Part shown: piece by piece, positions 37,306-45,064 of the stretch | Layout: each line of letters begins with the position of its first letter | Position numbering within the stretch: the stretch's first letter is position 1 | Translations under genes and position numbers: made by a program | Source: Fibrobacterales bacterium | GTDB taxonomy: Bacteria > Fibrobacterota > Fibrobacteria > Fibrobacterales > JAOPTW01 | DNA length: 64,000 nucleotides | Direction: 5' to 3' | NCBI GenBank assembly: GCA_051532055.1 | Contig: JAOPTX010000047.1 | Coordinates: forward strand, 32,907-96,906 | Notes under the pieces: generated by a model | Database searches by the model: none | Seen by the model: the letters and a program-made list of their open reading frames with translations, nothing else | What the model was told of the DNA's origin: nothing

Positions 37306-38955
37306 TTACAATCCAATCGACTGCTTAACCTCATCCACCACCGCATCCTGATCACTGAGCAGCCCTTCAAGGTCTGCTACAGCCTTTTTCCAACTTGAAA
37401 GTGTTTGAGGGCTTGCAGGATAACCAGCTTCTAAAACTTTTTCCTGCTGCATTTCTTCAACAACGGGTTCGATCATCTCTTTCCATTTGTTTAATATCAT
37501 TGCTCTTTTACTTTGTACTCTATCATACAATTCCTCAAATACTGTAGCGTATTGGTCGGGATAACAGAACCAATATTTCTCATACGGAGTTGAGGGAGTA
37601 AAAGAACACCCCGGATACCCTTTGACCGACCAGGCATCATCGAGTTCGGGCCAATAACTTTGTCCAAGATGCTGATAGTATTCATCAACCATGTCATGAT
37701 CCCATGGAATCATAAGAACTTTTTGGCTTTCAGGTAACACTACTGAATATGAATTATGCCCATTGGTCTGTGTGTTAACCCAGGTACCCATAAAAGGGGT
37801 GTCGTAGCTCAGAACTGCTTGGGCAGTAGCCACATGCCTGAGCAGTATATTTAAATCACCCCATGTATCTATGAATGATTTATACTCTTCTTTGTTTTGG
37901 ACGGTATTAAGAGCTGTTTCAAAATTTTGAACAACACTATGATCATCCTCCACTTCATTCGTTTTTAATAAATCAGAAAAGGTATTTGATTTGCTCAGTG
38001 GCCAGTAGTGTTTGTAAATATTACCACCATCATCATTAAAGTGATAGCGGGTAAATCTTCCATCAATTTGTTCAACCAATAAAAAGAGCCCTTCGAGCTT
38101 TCCGTTAATAAGGAGTCTAACATGAGTCGTTCGAGAAGCGGGAACACCCATTTCTCGGTATGCCCAATACGCAAAACGTTCACCCATATATGATGGGCCA
38201 TGATTCATTGAATGAAACTGCAGCTTTTTTAATCCATAATAGAGGCGATCAGGATATTGATCGGTATTAAATTTTACTTTCATAGATAACTTACACTGCT
38301 TTGGAGCATCAGCATCATCTTCCTTTGCACAGGGCCACCAGGAGCCCTCCGAGCCTTTGTATCGTATGAAAACATTTTTTGTGGTGTCTTCCTGGAATAC
38401 AATAGATCCAGGTACATATTCTTCTGCTATCGGGTTGGCATCTATACGATCCAGGTCATTAGGTTTTATTAACAGATTAAAGGTGTAGAGTGAATCTGGG
38501 TGAAATATATATCGGGATGAATCGCGCCAATCAGCAGTGGAAAGCAGTGTTGCGCCACTGAGCTCTTCACGATTCTTGTTTTCTTCTCGTATAATAGGCA
38601 GGTCTGTTATAGGGGGACTCGATTCAGAGCTACTAAGATGTACATCTGTTGCAGAAGAGTGCATGATATTGTGCGATATCGTTTCATGTGAACGACTCAT
38701 TTGTTCCAATGAAGAAGTATTCTCTTGGATTTTGCTCGACTGAAGTTCACTACTTGAATAGGGAGTACCCTGGGAGATTGCTTCTTCCAATGAGGAATCA
38801 AAAGAACTCAATTCAAGTGAATCTTTTAAAGAAGTTTCAGAATTTGGTGTCTCTTCATTCTCAATAGTTACTGGCAAATCATTATGGGTGTTTTGGCTAC
38901 AGTTTAAGAGAAAGAATACCATTAAGAGTGGTGCTGCAATACAGAATTTTTTCAT
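37306..38955 (-). CDS. CotH-family kinase lipoprotein with Ser-rich linker
   Basis: IRYKGS, KLSMKVKF, GLKKLQFH, GVPASRT, GLFLLVEQID, IPWDHD; start ATG 38955, lipobox LLNC. Confidence 0.85.
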   Translation of the reverse strand: MKKFCIAAPLLMVFFLLNCSQNTHNDLPVTIENEETPNSETSLKDSLELSSFDSSLEEAISQGTPYSSSELQSSKIQENTSSLEQMSRSHETISHNIMHSSATDVHLSSSESSPPITDLPIIREENKNREELSGATLLSTADWRDSSRYIFHPDSLYTFNLLIKPNDLDRIDANPIAEEYVPGSIVFQEDTTKNVFIRYKGSEGSWWPCAKEDDADAPKQCKLSMKVKFNTDQYPDRLYYGLKKLQFHSMNHGPSYMGERFAYWAYREMGVPASRTTHVRLLINGKLEGLFLLVEQIDGRFTRYHFNDDGGNIYKHYWPLSKSNTFSDLLKTNEVEDDHSVVQNFETALNTVQNKEEYKSFIDTWGDLNILLRHVATAQAVLSYDTPFMGTWVNTQTNGHNSYSVVLPESQKVLMIPWDHDMVDEYYQHLGQSYWPELDDAWSVKGYPGCSFTPSTPYEKYWFCYPDQYATVFEELYDRVQSKRAMILNKWKEMIEPVVEEMQQEKVLEAGYPASPQTLSSWKKAVADLEGLLSDQDAVVDEVKQSIGL

Positions 38956-39148
38956 ATGTCGTATTTGTTCTTTAAATACATCCTGATTAAGGTATGAATT
39001 CAAATGAAGCTTAATTGAGTAGTGTGCTGTGTCTAAAAGTATATTTCACTTTTAACTGATGTTGGTAATTCTATTATGTTGCTTCAATTTTACGCTTGGG
39101 AACACTCGGCGAACAGGGGGCTTGAATGAACTTGTGAGAATAGATAAT

Positions 39149-40600
39149 TTAATCCTTTGGCCCAACCCAAACTCCATTTACACAGGACCACTCTTCATAA
39201 ACCTCACCCTCGGTGCATGATTTATCTTCATCATTTTTACTATCATCTTTTTTGTCCCCTTCATTCCCATCTCCACAAAGTAAATCCATAGGTTTGTCTT
39301 TTTCAGGGAGTTCAGCTAAAGACTGATTGACGGCTTCTCTTCTTGCATTGACATATGTTCTCATGTCTTTAATAGCTGATGCGAATGGTGATACACTACT
39401 CTCTTTTTTACCAAATGCATTATCTATTTCTGGTTCATCTTTTATACTGTCTTCAAGGAGGTTTTCCATTCGGTCTATCTCGGCAATGATTTCTGATTCG
39501 TTCCATACCTCAGTTAAAAGTTTTTGCAGTTCCTCTACAAAGCGTTCACGTGTTGTAGTGTTTGAATAGAGCCTAAAGGGGATGATGCCATTCATAAATG
39601 CAAGTAATCCTTCATCAGAAAATTTACCGGTACTTATCATTGTTTTGTCGGCACCCCAGGGGATAAAAAATAGTTTCTCAGAAGTTGGGTCGATATAGAA
39701 ATAATAGTTGTTTACATCCGATGACATTCCGTCCGTATGATTGGTGAGCACCTCCATGCCCCAAAAGGTTAAAAATGCATCTATATCTACTAACCGGTCC
39801 AACGCTGCAACAAGTGAATCATCAGATGTTGCTAAAACATCAATCATCGCCTCAATAGCACTCATATCAGGAGCTTTCTTTTTGGTCTTCTGTTCAAATG
39901 TCCCGGTCCACCCATCTCGGAAATCACTCTGGGTACCTTCAAACAGGAGACCGTCATTGTCGGAAAAATGTTGAGCGAGAAATCGTTTTTTAATACTTTC
40001 AATATTAGAGTAGAGTCCCAGGTAGGTACCGTTCACAGTGACCTGTGCAAAGTTACACCGTGGTGCAGGTACGCCCGCTTTATTAAATAAGCTATAGGTT
40101 ATACACTGCGCGAGGTGAGATTCATCTGAGAGATTATTGTTAAGGGTGAGTCGATCAAGTCCATTTAACTCCTGGTCATCAATATATTCATCGAGCTTAA
40201 CCTTTAAGCTCGGTTTTTGTGCATTCACCGAACCGACAAAACCTTTTTTGCGTATTCCTACATTTTGAATAACAACACCATTTACTGATATTTCGCCAGA
40301 ACGGTATTCGTATGGGTCGTCCCATGGAGTATTGAGGCAGTCCTCTTGGGCAAATTGTGACCAGACATCGCGCTCCTGGTTTCGCACAAAGTCCCAGTCG
40401 CTAGAGTCGAGTGTAATTTCAACCTGAATGACTGTATTTGAATCAAAGAGCAGGTCACTACTCCCGTTTCCGATTTCAAACGAAAGTTCATTTTCATTCT
40501 CGGCCGAGTCATTCGTTTCACTGACTTCGCTGCAACCGAAAAAGAGGCTGCATATTAATAAAAATAAGGACCAAGTACTTACATTGAATACTCTGTTCAC
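39149..40600 (-). CDS. CotH-family kinase lipoprotein
   Basis: VGIRKKG, KPSLKVKLD, LTLNN, GVPAPRC, GLYSNIE, NNYY, FIPWGAD; lipobox FFGC. Confidence 0.88.
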   Translation of the reverse strand: MNRVFNVSTWSLFLLICSLFFGCSEVSETNDSAENENELSFEIGNGSSDLLFDSNTVIQVEITLDSSDWDFVRNQERDVWSQFAQEDCLNTPWDDPYEYRSGEISVNGVVIQNVGIRKKGFVGSVNAQKPSLKVKLDEYIDDQELNGLDRLTLNNNLSDESHLAQCITYSLFNKAGVPAPRCNFAQVTVNGTYLGLYSNIESIKKRFLAQHFSDNDGLLFEGTQSDFRDGWTGTFEQKTKKKAPDMSAIEAMIDVLATSDDSLVAALDRLVDIDAFLTFWGMEVLTNHTDGMSSDVNNYYFYIDPTSEKLFFIPWGADKTMISTGKFSDEGLLAFMNGIIPFRLYSNTTTRERFVEELQKLLTEVWNESEIIAEIDRMENLLEDSIKDEPEIDNAFGKKESSVSPFASAIKDMRTYVNARREAVNQSLAELPEKDKPMDLLCGDGNEGDKKDDSKNDEDKSCTEGEVYEEWSCVNGVWVGPKD

Positions 40601-40687
40601 GGAATCTCCATCAGTTTTACTAGTAACTTAAAGGTACTTAAACTTCAAAAGATACCGACGAATTTCAGGGTAGTTAACGCATCATGA

Positions 40688-41063
40688 TTGACTCGTCGTT
40701 CTCGGGTATTAACGAGCCGGATACCATATCAACTATCCTTTGAGCATAATTAACTAGTGGACCTCTATCTTTCACAAACTTTTGGCCATGATTCACTATC
40801 CGATTATGGATATTAGCTCGTGGATGCCCATATTCCACTAACTTTTGCGCCTGATTCACTGGTCGCTCGTGGATATTAGCTAGTGGACGCCTACATTTCC
40901 CTAACTTTTGGCCATGATTCACTATCCGATCGAGGATATTAGCTAGTAGACGCCCATCTTTCACTAACTTTTGATCACAATTCACTAGTGGACCGCGACT
41001 TTAGCTCGTGGATACTCACTTGTCACAAGTTTTTTAGACTCATGTGTAAGTGGACCTCCATAG
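40688..41063. repeat. Degenerate 21-nt tandem repeat array with 63-nt higher-order period
   Basis: About 17 units, e.g. TTCACTATCCGATTATGGATA / TTAGCTCGTGGATGCCCATAT / TCCACTAACTTTTGCGCCTGA. Confidence 0.85.
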
Positions 41064-41409
41064 TATTAAGATATTTTGCGAAATCGACTCATTGTTTAGG
41101 GGTTCCCATAAGATATTTCGTAGTGAGGGGACTCTGTTACCCAAAGTCACTCTACAGTCAAAAAAAAAATGAACAGTGACCCTCAATGTATAGGTGCCTT
41201 TTAAATGACATAGGGGCTAAAGCAACTCTTGCTTCTAAAATACATCAAGTTATGAAAAGATAAAAATTAAAAATTTAAAAGTTTTATTGTATGAGTGGTT
41301 ACATGGGTCAGGCAATTGTCGTTTAATGGGTACTAACTATCTGGTATTTGAATTCGGCTCAGTTGAATAGCAGACTAATGTTTATGAGCCAACACTAAGG
41401 AATACAATT

Positions 41410-42246
41410 ATGGCAGACCATAATAAAAATCAAAAAAAAGCAACAGTAACCTCATCACTTAAAATGGGGGAATATGAAAAAATTTATAATGAAGACATTG
41501 AGTTGATTCGTGCTGTTACCAGAGACAAATATTATGCTCCTCTTTTCTCTATTGATATCTATTTAGAAGAGGCTGAAGGATACCTAGCGGTAATTAATAG
41601 AAGAATGGAGCAACTGAAAGCTGAAGGGTTTAAAGATAAGCACCTCGATACATTTTATCGTAGAATTGCCTCAGCAAGAACTGCTCAGGCAAATATGGCA
41701 ACCCATCATACTACTGAGGAGGATGGGCTTTCGTGGGACGTATTGTTTCCCGAAGCTGAAAAATTGCGCAAGCGCCTACTCAAACGCATTAAACTTGTTT
41801 GTAAAGGCAACCCGCAAAAAGCGATGATTGTTAAAAATATTTCAAGCGGTAATAGAATCAGTGATACCATTCAAGATCTCTTTGAATTAGCAAAACTTGG
41901 TGAAACAGTAATGGACGGTTTACTTGAGTATAATGTACATGCGGATGAGTTGTACAGAGCAAAAGAACTCGTATCAATTCTCGGACGGTTGCATAAAGAA
42001 AATACGCTGAATAAAGGAGTGCATTCAGATTCTCGGATGATTCGCGACAAGGCCCTGACCCTTCTTAATGATTCTAATGTCATCATTAAAGAATATGCTG
42101 ACCTTGCTTTTGGCGATGATAAAAAGATTATGGATGAATTTCGTAGTGCTCATTCTCGTCAAAAAAATAAAAGTAACGGAGTACCAAAAACAGTTAAACC
42201 TACCAGTGATAATTCAATAGATGAGGAGGAATCAGAAGCTGTGTAG
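41410..42246 (+). CDS. Uncharacterised all-helical cytoplasmic protein
   Basis: AAGGA RBS, 278-aa ORF, amphipathic helices, acidic tail. Confidence 0.75.
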   Translation: MADHNKNQKKATVTSSLKMGEYEKIYNEDIELIRAVTRDKYYAPLFSIDIYLEEAEGYLAVINRRMEQLKAEGFKDKHLDTFYRRIASARTAQANMATHHTTEEDGLSWDVLFPEAEKLRKRLLKRIKLVCKGNPQKAMIVKNISSGNRISDTIQDLFELAKLGETVMDGLLEYNVHADELYRAKELVSILGRLHKENTLNKGVHSDSRMIRDKALTLLNDSNVIIKEYADLAFGDDKKIMDEFRSAHSRQKNKSNGVPKTVKPTSDNSIDEEESEAV

Positions 42247-42373
42247 TGTAATACTGATATATGATTAATCCACCCTTAAAATAGCAAGGGATCACGTATA
42301 ATAATGACCCCTCATATTTGAGCGATAGTATCGCTTGAGGGTGGATACTATCGACATGCAGGAAATCCCCCTT

Positions 42374-42538: not shown

Positions 42539-45064
42539 ATGCAGCTTAAAATACTCATTTTTCTGTTAACACTATTATCGGTGACATTAACCTCATGTAT
42601 TGGAGACACTGGATCTAATACGGATCTATCAAAAGATCAAAATTCAAATATTAATATGGATGAGATTGAAAATGTTACTCTTGAGCTTACTATTCTTCTT
42701 GGATCTATTGAAATTGATAGTATCTATGTTGAATATCTATTAGACTCAACTACTATAAATAATGAAGAAGTATCATTGTCAAGGCCGATGAATGGTGAAG
42801 TCAATATTGAGTTACAGATAGAAAAATTCATTGCAACAACATTAAGTTATCGATGCTATAGAAGTGGGCAATTAATAGGTTCAATGGATGAAAATCTGTT
42901 TTTATCAAGTGATACTACTATTAAAACAACAATGGATCTATTTCCTATTTCCTTTTTTGCTGGTCGTGATACTGTAATGATGATAGGTAATAGAATTAAA
43001 TTTGTTCCTCAATTAGATGATGAATCGCATCAAGTTGTTTATCGTTATGATCATTTTGGCACAGGTAACTTCACAGAAGAAAGTCAATCCTTTTACAATA
43101 AGGAAGGTGTGTTTATTGCTGTAGTTAGTGTGTTTGATGGCTACCATACAGTAAAAGATAGTGTGACAATAACTGTCGAAAAGCCTGTTTTTAGTGGAAT
43201 TAATAGTAGTTCATCTTATCAGGCACCAGATATTGTACCTGTTTCCTCGAACTCTAGGATAATTGAGAACAATGATGAATCTTCTATGGATCATTTTTCT
43301 AGTTCTTCTCTAATGGAGTTAGATGATTCTATATCTATTGCTCTGTCTGCTATTTCTAGCGGGGGTGTTATAAGGTTTGCAATAGGTAATACTTTGAATC
43401 GGAACGTTATAATAGGTCAGGATGTAAATGTGAAAGCGACTCCTGACTCTGGATATGTATTCAAAGGTTGGAGTGGGGGTGAATTTATTGATCTAGTTTC
43501 AGAAGAGAATACCGTCACTTGTGATGCTGACTGTGTAATAACAGGGCAGTTTGTACGCGTATTCTCATTGTCGTACAATGCAAAGGATACTGAGGTTGGA
43601 TACCCTCAAGATAAATATGGAATTGAACATCAATCATCTGTGCGACTTGGGGGTGATGTAACTCAATTGAAAAAAAGTGGGTATTCATTTGATAAATGGA
43701 TAGACCAAGATGGTAATGAATATGAAATTGGCGATGAACTTCTTATGCCTGAAAAGGATTTGGTAATTACAGCTGTTTGGTCTGAAAATCCAACCTATGG
43801 AATAATATATTCTGCCCCTAGTATTACGTCCGGGAGTGTTCCAATTGATAATGCTCTTTATGAAGAAAAAGAACTATTTGCCGTTCTTGATAAGGGAACG
43901 ATGGCAAAAAGAGGATATGTTTTTTCTCATTGGTTGGAAAGTGTAACTTACACTGTTGGAAAACCATATGAAATGCCTGCTGGTGGAATTACGCTGACGG
44001 CTAATTGGGTTTCTAGGACAAATACAGTAACATTTAGCAAAAATGATGGTGGATCTGTTGCCGTAAAAATAGAGTATAAAGCAACAGGGTCAATTTTACC
44101 TCCAACAGGCATTACAACACCAACTAGAACTAGTTATCTGTTTTCTGGTAATTGGTGTGTCGATGAGTCATGCAGGAAAATGTGGGACTTTAACAATGAT
44201 ACAGTCAATTCTGATACAGTACTTTATGCTCATTGGGTTCAAAAAACTGTTACGAATATTACACTGAATAAAAGTATTGTACATCATATGACGGTTAATG
44301 GTAATGAAGAACAACTAGATGCATCACTGGAACCACTGGACCTATTAAATAGAAACGTACTATGGCGTTCGTCAAATACAAAAGTTGTTACAGTTGATGC
44401 AAGTGGGAAAGTAAGTGCTGTTGGTATTGGCTTTGCAAGTATATCTGTTATAGCTGATGATAATAACTCATATATAGCTGAATGTGATTTTACTGTCGAT
44501 TCACTATTAGATGAAAGGGACAATCAGGTGTATGGCGCAGTAGCGATTGGTACTCAAATTTGGATGTCTGAAAATCTTAATTTTGCATCCAGTAGAAGTG
44601 TATGTCACGGTGGTCAAGTTGAAAATTGTGATAAGTACGGACGATTATATACTTGGTCAAGCGCTATGAATATTAGCCAATTATGGGATAATTCAAATTA
44701 TACTAGTATACTCGATGATTTTCAGGGTTCCTGCCCAGTCGGCTGGCATATTCCTACTGATGATGAATGGAAAACAATGATAGATTTTGCTAAGCAAAAT
44801 GCTCCAGCAGGTGAATCACTCTTAGAAGTTTTGAAATCAACTACTGGTTGGACAAAATCGACGCCGGGTACTGATAGATTTGGTTTTTCAGTATTGCCGG
44901 CCGGAAATGATCACTGTATTGTAGATTATCGATGCGCTGATTTCTGGAGTTCTACCCAATCAGGAAGTGTGTACGCTAAAGAAAGGGATTTCACTCGTGA
45001 TATTGAGCGAGCAGAGGGGTATATTAAAACAGCACAATATTCTATGAGGTGTGTGCAAAACTAG
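42539..45064 (+). CDS. Lipoprotein with InlB B-repeats, Big_2 and C-terminal FISUMP (Fib_succ_major) domain
   Basis: Lipobox LTSC; KSGYSFDKW...ITAVW repeats; DERDNQVY..V.IGTQIWMSENLN, YGRLYTW, CPVGWHIPT, FGFSVLPAG, SMRCV. Confidence 0.9.
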   Translation: MQLKILIFLLTLLSVTLTSCIGDTGSNTDLSKDQNSNINMDEIENVTLELTILLGSIEIDSIYVEYLLDSTTINNEEVSLSRPMNGEVNIELQIEKFIATTLSYRCYRSGQLIGSMDENLFLSSDTTIKTTMDLFPISFFAGRDTVMMIGNRIKFVPQLDDESHQVVYRYDHFGTGNFTEESQSFYNKEGVFIAVVSVFDGYHTVKDSVTITVEKPVFSGINSSSSYQAPDIVPVSSNSRIIENNDESSMDHFSSSSLMELDDSISIALSAISSGGVIRFAIGNTLNRNVIIGQDVNVKATPDSGYVFKGWSGGEFIDLVSEENTVTCDADCVITGQFVRVFSLSYNAKDTEVGYPQDKYGIEHQSSVRLGGDVTQLKKSGYSFDKWIDQDGNEYEIGDELLMPEKDLVITAVWSENPTYGIIYSAPSITSGSVPIDNALYEEKELFAVLDKGTMAKRGYVFSHWLESVTYTVGKPYEMPAGGITLTANWVSRTNTVTFSKNDGGSVAVKIEYKATGSILPPTGITTPTRTSYLFSGNWCVDESCRKMWDFNNDTVNSDTVLYAHWVQKTVTNITLNKSIVHHMTVNGNEEQLDASLEPLDLLNRNVLWRSSNTKVVTVDASGKVSAVGIGFASISVIADDNNSYIAECDFTVDSLLDERDNQVYGAVAIGTQIWMSENLNFASSRSVCHGGQVENCDKYGRLYTWSSAMNISQLWDNSNYTSILDDFQGSCPVGWHIPTDDEWKTMIDFAKQNAPAGESLLEVLKSTTGWTKSTPGTDRFGFSVLPAGNDHCIVDYRCADFWSSTQSGSVYAKERDFTRDIERAEGYIKTAQYSMRCVQN

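Follow-up and report, generated by a model that had tools for sequence, protein, structure and literature searches.

The repeat array and its neighbouring genes

The locus lies in a 64-kb window (the whole stretch of DNA that was analysed) on a 96,906-base contig, with CotH and Fib_succ_major genes in the flanks. A CotH gene and a gene for a 278-aa protein point away from each other on the minus and plus strands, respectively, and a tandem array of short repeats occupies the region between them, an arrangement that had already been described from the sequence alone and that our annotation bears out. The features of the locus are as follows.

39149..40600, minus strand: CotH gene (Pfam CotH, E 4.5e-47)
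40674..40985, minus strand: ORF of 103 aa opened by the repeat, with a translation periodic at 21 aa; judged not to be a gene
40688..41043, no strand assigned: tandem array, judged non-coding, of ~17 units of 20-21 nt with a higher-order 63-nt repeat
40749..40987, no strand assigned: well-kept core of the array (TRF, 63 nt x 3.8 copies with 78% matches; autocorrelation)
41044..41409, plus strand: spacer of 366 nt between array and gene, A+T-rich at ~41240-41290
41410..42246, plus strand: gene of the presumed array partner, an all-helical, PQLLE-like superfamily protein of 278 aa (homologue search, profile, model)

All 17 of the units proposed by the sequence-only reading were found where it had placed them, the outer ones (40688-40749 and 41001-41043) being degenerate. 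TRF scored the core at 287 and called a period of 126 nt as well, and the autocorrelation over 40688-41060 reached 0.558 at a lag of 63 nt, 0.522 at 126 nt and 0.347 at 21 nt. Five hundred shuffles gave a mean of 0.258 (sd 0.022-0.024) and a top value, at any lag in any shuffle, of 0.379, so that the 63-nt period is very strong and the 21-nt sub-period weaker (z ~4). Each 63 nt holds three unit types: types B and C share the core TTCACTA, and the type-A unit (TTAGCTAGTGGA) carries this core inverted (10 nt, 90% complementary). Within the 64-kb window the periodic signal was limited to sliding windows starting at 40699, 40762 and 40825, and no second copy of the array was found in its own genome (self match E 6e-204; five other matches, all at E >= 0.94). 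This genome has 13 TRF clusters with a period that is a multiple of 21 nt, five of them inside ORFs of at least 200 aa. The edges of the array are 88 nt from the CotH start codon and 366 nt from the 278-aa gene.

An alignment of seven spacers revealed a block common to the closest paralogues at ~41296-41362 (GTTACA..CGTyTAATG.GT..TAA...CTG...GGCTCA), presumably the promoter or leader of the 278-aa gene. Promoter-like sites in the window (8, against 6.7±2.4 expected) and terminator-like sites (1, against 1.2±1.1 expected) were not above chance, and a simple scan detected no terminator-like site between 41043 and 41410. A marine metatranscriptome (0.09 of sampled words) contained a 219-nt contig 100% identical to positions 41698-41916, inside the gene; this dataset consists of assembled contigs, which cannot show absence, and has no bearing on transcription of the array. 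Two more pieces from the same dataset (33 nt with 3 mismatches and 50 nt with 5) were probably derived from paralogues, and none of the pieces fell on the array.

Coding status of the array

We judge the array to be non-coding. Two 20-nt units, which had been taken to break any single reading frame, do occur at 40709 and 40981, but the core is spanned by the 103-aa minus-strand ORF, so that the absence of an open frame holds for the whole array only. This ORF, which lies upstream of CotH, raises the alternative that the array encodes a small heptad-repeat protein, in keeping with the single frame open across the core and with the 21-residue periodicity of its translation. Yet a search among 5.8 billion proteins returned eight candidate homologues, none at E <= 0.01, and no Pfam family matched the ORF. 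The differences between repeats were not concentrated at third codon positions (7, 13 and 9 variable columns on codon positions 1, 2 and 3, respectively), and the units at 41001 and 41022 extend past the ORF start. The equivalent arrays of relatives, moreover, have periods of 20, 22, 41, 43 and 83 nt, and those at three loci (L008, L011 and L013) have no spanning ORF. A conserved, translated heptad-repeat gene is almost certainly the wrong explanation of the array.

The helical protein and its superfamily

The gene at 41410 had been described as an orphan ORF, which was wrong: its product belongs to a superfamily, and 249 cluster representatives of its own family were found at E <= 1e-3. Copies of the family occur at 7 places in the own genome and at 15 in the sister genome, as paralogues that are 26-47% identical, and members are present in 42 of the 296 genomes of the phylum. 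The superfamily comprises this family together with the NCBIfam PQLLE family, both consisting of all-helical proteins of ~220-310 aa. The PQLLE model (NF052641) scored the window protein at 29.9 bits (E 4.1e-7), below its cut-off of 80 bits; 60 of 80 members of the window protein's family matched this model weakly (best E 2.6e-11), and no protein of the own genome matched it above the cut-off. By these profile scores, the window protein represents a sister family of PQLLE and is not itself a member.

Structure prediction and Foldseek, the route that the sequence-only reading had suggested, gave a confident model (pLDDT 91.5), a helical bundle with no strands and no recognised DNA-binding fold, but no match at E <= 1e-3 in PDB or BFVD. 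The highest-scoring VIA match (Z 9.0) was a generic four-helix bundle and fell under the tool's own bar for helical proteins, and the homodimer prediction scored 0.00, which is evidence neither way. The median pI of the family is 5.7, with 50 of 80 members below 6.5 and the window protein at 6.7. No Pfam family matched the window protein or its family, the PDB held no sequence match to the family, PADLOC matched none of 20 members, and PHROGs returned three families, each in one of 80 members. Fused or longer forms of the protein were not found, which is weak evidence by the tool's own account, and reciprocal HMM searches identified none of the ORFs adjoining arrays as a hidden second member of either family.

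Arrays beside homologous genes

Related loci were searched with a 20-row sub-alignment of the 80-row family alignment, and an array was counted where a periodicity of 20-22 nt, or of 41-44, 63 or 84 nt, lay beside the gene. The expectation that flanks of homologues would show 21-nt periodicity was borne out: an array accompanied the gene at 86 of 151 loci, and 65 had none at the TRF threshold used, counts that overstate their statistical weight because related loci are not independent. Array position differed between groups. In the genus of the window the array was upstream in 10 of 20 loci and downstream in one; loci of the phylum had an array in 14 of 28 cases (3 upstream, 11 downstream); and in other phyla it lay at most 600 nt downstream of the gene in 42 of 80. 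At these 80 loci array density was 0.93 per kb over the 600 nt that follow the gene, as compared with 0.015 and 0.05 in the far flanks, 0.128 upstream and 0 inside the gene. True PQLLE loci carried a 21/42-nt array 50-650 nt upstream in 14 of 23 cases, and in most members outside the genus and true PQLLE the array starts ~125 nt past the stop codon. Superfamily members with an array within ~1 kb were found in at least six named phylum-level groups.

The period of these arrays is constant and their sequence differs from locus to locus, to the point that the units of paralogues are unrelated. A period of 20-22 nt was called in 76 of 185 TRF rows and one of 40-44 nt in 32. Aligning 237 units from 51 loci gave the consensus AAATCCCGCAGGAAGGGTAAAAAT, with spacing alternating between 20 and 21 nt and an in-phase A-tract (A in 194, 191, 170 and 153 of the 237 units at four consecutive positions). 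The common core of the other phyla had no match on the window array, on either strand, and none on the eight genus arrays scanned except for two weak antisense matches in L013. Matches to this common core inside the gene are caused by the codons of a conserved QEAE motif; the bias towards CAG at this motif (60/68 vs 385/697) is weak because related loci are not independent.

Array and gene are also copied together. Two paralogous loci of the sister genome (L009 and L011) are 92% identical over 1.9 kb, a duplicated unit that runs from ~40 nt before the array to just past the gene's terminator and includes array, spacer and gene. Orthologous arrays vary less within one array (96% and 89% matches) than from species to species (31 of 42 consensus positions). 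Apart from the family gene, the gene neighbourhood of arrays changes between loci. Together, the array and the 278-aa gene make up a conserved module of two parts, in line with the undescribed repeat-plus-protein module that had been proposed, and the two parts probably work as a pair.

An array that functions independently of its neighbouring protein seems improbable to us. It could be phased curved DNA, a set of host-factor sites tuning a nearby promoter (e.g., that of CotH), or a satellite that persists by chance beside the family, and arrays of the same kind do occur without a family gene, at three places in the own genome (C39:18619-18878, C30:40652-40777 and C37:89117-89312) and behind a histidine-kinase gene in a KSB1 MAG. 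The window array is closer to the CotH start (88 nt) than to the family gene (366 nt), the protein, which is acidic, lacks any known nucleic-acid-binding fold, and 20-21-nt repeats are described from many bacterial groups with no partner named in the body of the survey (PMC8161180). These observations have to be set against a 20- to 60-fold enrichment beside the family gene over the flanks, a pairing that recurs in two sister families and several phyla, the duplication of array and gene as one unit, and the variability of the other neighbours. The gene-less C39 array, furthermore, is homologous to a gene-bearing array of the sister genome (34 of 42 consensus positions) and so looks like a remnant.

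In another alternative, the helical-protein gene would be carried by a small element that moves or recombines, and the array would be that element's end or recognition structure, acted on by an enzyme encoded elsewhere, such as an IS200-type Y1 transposase. IS200-like Y1 genes were present in 5 of 48 scanned loci (L061, L081, L089, L158 and L162), other transposases also occur nearby, many family genes lie less than 1 kb from a contig end, and, besides the 1.9-kb unit duplicated within one genome, an array with its right flank was found duplicated without the gene. We consider such an element very improbable: 43 of the 48 loci had no Y1 gene, inspection by eye showed neither terminal inverted repeats nor target duplications at the ends of the 1.9-kb unit, and the paralogues are old, as judged by their 26-47% identity. 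The family was, in addition, not found in 72,556 plasmid records (tblastn with one family member), in 50,697 phage records or in IMG/VR.

A candidate DNA platform and the RNA alternative

Tentatively, we take the array to be a platform of helically phased DNA that would serve the neighbouring protein. The array would act as double-stranded DNA, in which each unit presents a single short conserved core every two helical turns, often followed by an in-phase A-tract. This two-turn spacing would put all cores on one face of the helix. The protein encoded by the neighbouring gene, alone or as part of a complex, could then assemble cooperatively on this multivalent platform and would be specific for its own array. 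Most likely, the assembly would control the gene's own expression or a neighbouring promoter, here that of CotH, whose start codon is 88 nt from the edge of the array; a local nucleoprotein structure is a possible alternative outcome.

Several findings stand against a DNA platform. The proteins are mostly acidic and are modelled as a helical bundle that lacks a recognised DNA-binding fold, arrays without a gene exist and 65 of the 151 loci have no array, and the window array does not carry the common core. Dyad symmetry, considered as a mark of double-stranded DNA sites, was rejected, since perfect palindromes (>=6 bp) in the units were no commoner than in shuffles (32 arrays vs 33.1±4.1). The core also keeps its orientation towards the gene, which a role as RNA would explain too: in the 500 nt after the gene we counted 150 sense and 41 antisense hits, 32 of the latter in the first 200 nt and only ~2 per bin elsewhere, and in one MAG the polarity was kept for upstream arrays too. 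In some loci, such as L102, an anti-repeat and the first repeat together make up the stem of the gene's terminator.

These last observations point to the alternative of a repeat RNA, unstructured and often purine-rich, which would be transcribed with the gene or by read-through and whose units would be bound, sequestered or cut by the helical protein. It would take the form of a ribonucleoprotein, an autoregulatory decoy, or a toxin with an RNA antitoxin on type III logic. We consider it unlikely. In its favour, in addition to the polarity, which is common to downstream and upstream arrays, pairing is possible between the first repeat and an anti-repeat close past the stop codon. The order of array and then gene, seen in the genus and at PQLLE loci, and the higher-order units of 42 and 63 nt resemble type III toxin-antitoxin loci. 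Family genes are multi-copy, with a patchy distribution, and restriction-modification, Abi, DUF3800 and transposase genes are frequent neighbours; broken family genes as well as arrays left without a gene also occur. Conserved Ser, Tyr, Arg and acidic residues are candidates for a catalytic site, and related 52-nt repeats of Bacillus coagulans are reported, in the text of PMC8625621, to be transcribed.

Transcription signals and folding argue against a repeat RNA. In 23 of 42 loci the stop codon and the array are separated by a hairpin with a T run that resembles a terminator; past the array, only 8 of 39 loci have one. The Bacteroidota -7 promoter motif was not enriched before arrays (0.51 vs 0.52 per kb). 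The 237 units showed no covarying column pair; the window array did not fold significantly (z -2.19 on the plus strand, -1.16 on the minus strand); and Rfam matched neither the window nor the arrays of 12 further loci. No terminator-like site separates array and gene in the window, and the Pfam, PADLOC and fold searches revealed no relation to ToxN, AbiQ or CptN-type toxins. A unit of 20-22 nt maintained across very different sequences and proteins is, moreover, explained more simply by DNA geometry.

Comparison with known repeat-plus-protein systems

The window array shares several traits with the iterons of theta plasmids that encode Rep proteins (pSC101, P1, F, R6K and RK2). In both, direct repeats are phased at about two helical turns (~17-22 bp) beside the gene for a protein of similar size (~250-350 aa for Rep, with 3-26 repeat copies), the repeat sequence is particular to each protein and may be accompanied by an inverted copy, and in the window an A+T-rich stretch separates array and gene. 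Unlike Rep, the window protein has no Pfam Rep match, and its predicted, all-helical structure contains no winged-helix fold; unlike iteron plasmids, the module is chromosomal, a genome can have as many as 15 copies, and the family was not found on plasmids. The literature that we searched on iteron-like and 21-bp repeats held nothing on a pairing of arrays with a helical protein.

Type III toxin-antitoxin systems (ToxIN, CptIN and TenpIN) consist of 34-45-nt units that fold into pseudoknots and of toxins that share a ToxN-type fold. Akin to these, the module combines a tandem direct-repeat array with one protein gene, has the array upstream in the genus (10 of 20 loci), and is orthogonal, patchy and found near defence and mobile genes. 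It differs in its basic unit of 20-22 nt, in showing no detectable fold and in having no terminator between array and gene in the window. The protein is predicted to be an unrelated helical bundle, a comparison in which the missing fold match does not exclude a ToxN, AbiQ or CptN fold.

Centromere-like arrays, represented by ParR-parC of plasmid R1 and SopB-sopC of F (43-bp repeats), likewise place phased direct repeats beside the gene for a coating protein, with which the repeats build a nucleoprotein structure; for the window protein such a role is putative. In contrast to these systems, the neighbourhoods examined contained no partner ATPase or actin-like gene, the protein has neither a ribbon-helix-helix nor a ParB fold, and the module is not plasmid-borne.

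Two other classes were rejected. A guide array of the CRISPR or TIGR type does not fit units that repeat whole at 78-96% identity with no unique spacers, nor a protein for which no Cas or Nop family or fold was found. A CsrA sponge of the CsrB/RsmZ type, considered for the GGA-core arrays of relatives, was discarded as Pfam CsrA was absent from four of the five genomes with GGAAGG-type arrays. The own genome does have CsrA, yet the window array has no GGAAGG-type core.

Closest to the module are the PQLLE family on the side of the protein and the constant-size repeats on the side of the array. NF052641 PQLLE proteins are all-helical, of similar size and present in many copies per genome, with upstream 21/42-nt arrays as in the window, whereas most members of the window protein's sister family carry the array after the gene. 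Judged by titles and abstracts, the literature returned 'PQLLE' as an incidental peptide string and 'DUF6261' in unrelated contexts.

A study published in J Bacteriol in 2020 reportedly dealt with the same class of constant-size bacterial tandem repeats. As set out in the body of the article by Subirana and Messeguer (Int J Mol Sci 2021, PMC8161180), these repeats combine a constant size (20-21 nt, also 40-41 and 52 nt) with a variable sequence and were left unexplained; their length equals two turns of DNA, and a protein polymerising on the DNA, or small RNAs, were proposed. The window array matches that description in being non-coding, as judged above, tandem and of ~20-21 nt, with 41-44-nt forms among its relatives comparable to the 40-41-nt forms reported there, and in having a locus- or species-specific sequence with a short motif in each unit (in the window, TTCACTA or its inverted copy). 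It departs from it in two respects: the arrays studied here lie beside, and are co-inherited with, genes of one helical superfamily, whereas the text of that survey names no partner gene, and the own genome has only a handful of such arrays, whereas the genomes surveyed there have many. The literature searched yielded no link of such arrays to a protein.

A helical superfamily that travels with arrays across phyla provides a named candidate for the protein proposed to polymerise on such repeats. In its widest form, which we consider somewhat unlikely, PQLLE-like proteins would be the missing partners of the constant-size 20-21-nt repeats, forming orthogonal nucleoprotein or ribonucleoprotein modules of a kind not yet described, in which a new fold is joined to a helically phased repeat. 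Such modules would spread horizontally as self-contained two-part systems, perhaps with an addictive, defensive or insulating role, and would be as widespread as toxin-antitoxin families. Having a concrete candidate superfamily makes the question directly testable in cultured carriers, which include Sunxiuqinia elliptica, Prolixibacter bellariivorans, Marinifilum breve, Labilibacter marinus and Aquimarina megaterium. Should specific recognition between protein and nucleic acid exist in many orthogonal variants, the modules would offer a new set of programmable protein-site pairs.

A tandem array next to the gene of a helical protein

The array of the window lies among the following features:

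39149..40600, minus strand: CotH gene (Pfam CotH, E 4.5e-47), divergent from the 278-aa ORF
40674..40985, minus strand: 103-aa ORF spanning the conserved array core, judged spurious
between the CotH gene and the 278-aa ORF: tandem array, detected by TRF and by autocorrelation
41410..42246, plus strand: 278-aa ORF, on the other flank of the array

The core of the array (40749-40987) has a period of 63 nt, with 3.8 copies and 78% matches by TRF. Across the region 40688-41060, autocorrelation reached 0.558 for a lag of 63 nt and 0.347 for one of 21 nt, as compared with a mean of 0.258±0.02 in 500 shuffles and a maximum of 0.379 in any shuffle at any lag. The array seen in the sequence-only reading is confirmed, and all 17 unit starts listed there were correct; degeneracy is found in the outer units, and 20 nt is the length of two of the 17. 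A single core is common to the three unit types, with TTCACTA opening types B and C and an inverted copy present in type A (TTAGCTAGTGGA). A distance of 88 nt separates the edge of the array from the second CotH gene's start codon. The array has no second copy in its own genome and matches no Rfam family.

A coding repeat was considered, given the 103-aa ORF that spans the array core on the minus strand. This ORF has no Pfam family and no homologue that we could find among 5.8 billion proteins, an alignment of the four 63-nt copies has 29 variable columns, spread over codon positions 1/2/3 as 7/13/9, the repeat extends past the start of the ORF, and the equivalent arrays of relatives have frame-breaking periods (20, 22, 41, 43 and 83 nt). 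We therefore judged it spurious. No ORF spans the array at three related loci (L008, L011 and L013), and it is very improbable that the array is a coding repeat.

Elsewhere in this neighborhood, two tandem CotH-family genes occupy 37306-40600 on the minus strand (565 aa and 483 aa; Pfam CotH E 4.4e-25 and 4.5e-47), both encoding proteins with lipoprotein-like N-termini. On the plus strand, 42539-45064 encodes a protein of 841 aa whose N-terminus is of lipoprotein type; it contains Listeria-Bacteroides repeats, InlB B-repeat-like and Big_2 domains, and a Fibrobacter succinogenes major paralogous domain at its C-terminus. Just past the stop codon of the 278-aa ORF, an inverted repeat was seen by eye (ATCCACCCT / AGGGTGGAT, ~60 nt apart, 42270-42347); it includes a GTGGAT motif that is also found in the C units of the array.

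The helical protein belongs to a widespread family

The 278-aa ORF had been called an orphan, but relatives exist in its own genome (matches at 7 places), in the sister genome, the only other one of the genus (15 places), and among cluster representatives, where 249 of 1.84 billion matched at E <= 1e-3 and were mostly 230-310 aa long. No family match occurred in 59 further genomes of the order. Within the phylum the family is present in 42/296 genomes, and in none of the 151 genomes of the phylum's largest family; searches of plasmid, phage and IMG/VR collections did not find it. Alignment of 80 members (A1) revealed near-invariant residues E54, W109, R212, L219, F234 and S246. Pfam offered no fitting family, and PDB sequences, PADLOC and PHROGs yielded nothing for the protein. 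The NCBIfam model NF052641 ("PQLLE family protein") was matched weakly by 60/80 members, the window protein scoring 29.9 bits as against a cut-off of 80.

The AlphaFold model of the window protein is confident and all-helical (pLDDT 91.5, pTM 0.75), and one of its helices is 57 residues long. Foldseek searches with this model retrieved nothing from the PDB or BFVD at E <= 1e-3, and the top VIA score, to a generic four-helix bundle (Z 9.0), falls short of the threshold that the tool itself sets for helical proteins. Members are mostly acidic (median pI 5.7), with conserved arginines and acidic residues kept.

At homologue loci L060-L138, the codons of a conserved QEAE motif, ~60-100 nt into the family gene, read CAGGAAGC, like the array core. 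Glutamine at this site is encoded by CAG in 60/68 loci, as compared with 385/697 elsewhere in the same genes, a bias that could reflect chance or a nucleotide-level constraint.

Arrays recur beside homologous genes

Running TRF on the DNA flanking homologues showed that, within the genus, an array lies at most 1 kb upstream of the family gene in 10/20 loci, downstream in 1 and is absent from 9. The upstream arrays have periods of 21, 42, 43, 63 or 84 nt, and their unit sequences are unrelated between paralogues. In 28 loci from family-bearing genomes of the phylum, arrays were found upstream in 3 and downstream in 11. For other phyla, a 20-member sub-alignment identified 174 relatives in public genomes, 80 loci of which were kept; their records name Bacteroidota (several orders), Calditrichaceae, KSB1, Aminicenantes and Delta-/Gammaproteobacteria MAGs, in which binning may be imperfect. 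In 42 of these 80 the array centre falls within 600 nt past the gene. Array density is 0.93/kb in the 600 nt 3' of the gene, 0.128/kb in the 600 nt 5' of it and zero within it, while the far flanks have densities of 0.015/kb and 0.05/kb; periods of 20-22 nt account for 76/185 TRF rows and 40-44 nt for 32/185. True PQLLE genes, matched in 8 of 201 sampled Bacteroidota-phylum genomes (6 above cut-off), have 21/42-nt arrays 50-650 nt upstream in 14/23 loci, the same layout as in the window.

In total, 86/151 loci carry an array, these loci being the best-scoring of each search and the related ones not independent. The flanks of homologues thus do show the 21-nt periodicity; this was the check proposed in the sequence-only reading, and its outcome supports the main inference made there, that the array is coupled to the adjoining ORF. 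The counts are probably underestimates, because numerous genes of the family sit no more than a few hundred bases from where a contig stops, as though short-read assemblies broke at the repeats.

Some loci depart from the usual form. Behind the family genes of L028 and L105 there is instead a large array (L028:2289-3744 and L105:3268-5209) of ~225-227-nt period (6-9 copies, 95-96% matches) with a 12-nt sub-repeat inside, and at L076:3364-3669 and ~1070-1400 of L167 and L168, a direct-repeat block is followed by an inverted-core block with the 21-nt register kept.

The common array form is oriented and lies mostly beyond the terminator

Within the 80 loci from other phyla, one consensus, AAATCCCGCAGGAAGGGTAAAAAT, fits 237 units from 51 loci. 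The units are spaced alternately by 20 and 21 nt and contain an invariant GG then A, with an A-tract in phase; covariation analysis found no covarying column pair among the 237 units. This common core has no match in the window array on either strand. Gene and array are a median of 125 nt apart, and arrays have a median length of 132 nt. In 23/42 loci the stop codon and the array are separated by a hairpin that, with its T run, resembles a terminator; such a hairpin lies past the array in only 8/39. Upstream of the arrays, the Bacteroidota -7 promoter motif showed no enrichment. In the 500 nt past the gene the core is found on the sense strand of the gene, with 150 sense vs 41 antisense matches; of the latter, 32 occur within the first 200 nt and pair there with the first repeat as a hairpin. 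In one Aminicenantes MAG the arrays precede the gene in sense orientation, and their core is GGTGGAAATGG.

Co-inheritance of array and gene

Two sister-genome paralogues (L009 and L011) share a stretch of 1.9 kb at 92% identity, which runs from ~40 nt 5' of the array to just past the gene's terminator and forms a unit of duplication holding both array and gene. Between the two species, orthologous arrays are internally uniform (96% and 89%), while their consensus units agree at 31/42 positions; this greater uniformity within an array than between species points to homogenisation within arrays. Decayed copies also occur, the gene being truncated beside its array at L010 and broken by a stop codon at L016. 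Arrays left without a gene are a further sign of decay, and the window's own genome contains such non-coding arrays, of 41-42-nt period, on three contigs:

C39:18619-18878
C30:40652-40777
C37:89117-89312

The C39 array is homologous to a sister-genome array that precedes a family gene (34/42 consensus positions). In a KSB1 MAG, a gene-less duplicate of an array, its right flank included, lies behind a kinase gene. That the array of the window is a cis element unrelated to the protein is rather unlikely. The C30 array directly follows a LuxR-type gene and by eye resembles the array behind L019.

Neighbor genes are variable, often encoding restriction-modification, Abi, DUF3800, transposase or IS200-type Y1 proteins. 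IS200-type Y1 transposase genes adjoin the family gene in 5/48 neighbor-scanned loci (L061, L081, L089, L158 and L162). At L158 and L162 the Y1 gene is directly behind the family gene. That the array is a mobile-element structure is quite improbable. Downstream of the family genes of L009 and L010, on the opposite strand, lies a gene with 144-nt (48-aa) coding repeats, RCC1-like by eye.

Possible mode of action and relation to known repeats

The comparisons show that array and gene are coupled. Across unrelated units and proteins (down to ~25% identity), the sole constant is the unit's length of two turns of the helix, in many cases accompanied by an A-tract kept in phase. Because this unit is constant, arrays lie mostly outside the gene's terminator and neither RNA fold nor covariation is detectable (z -2.19 and -1.16 for folding of the window array), we tentatively favor a role at the DNA level, by a mechanism that we infer. 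Since only the neighboring protein changes together with the array, it would be the natural candidate binder. Against the DNA reading stand the acidic protein, which has no known DNA-binding fold, the fixed polarity of the core and an anti-repeat that overlaps the terminator; given these points, a module acting at the RNA level is less probable than the DNA role but ranks next to it. The cis-element, mobile-element and coding explanations are all less likely than either of these roles.

Our literature search found no paper on the pairing of such an array with a helical protein. The array itself belongs to a class already described in print yet unexplained, the "enigmatic group" of bacterial tandem repeats of Subirana & Messeguer (PMC8161180), described, in the part of that paper available to us, as having constant size, variable sequence and a short motif in every unit. 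Their sizes are 20-21 nt, with some repeats of 40-41 nt and a further class of 52 nt; the repeat length was equated with two turns of DNA, and a protein polymerising on the DNA or small RNAs were proposed. The same authors report transcription of the 52-nt repeats in Bacillus coagulans (PMC8625621). The window array agrees with these repeats in unit length, non-coding nature and variable sequence with a kept motif. It differs in lying beside a presumed partner gene, that of the helical protein, whereas none is named in the available parts of these papers. The link between this repeat class and a helical-protein superfamily appears to be new, and makes the function of the repeats testable.
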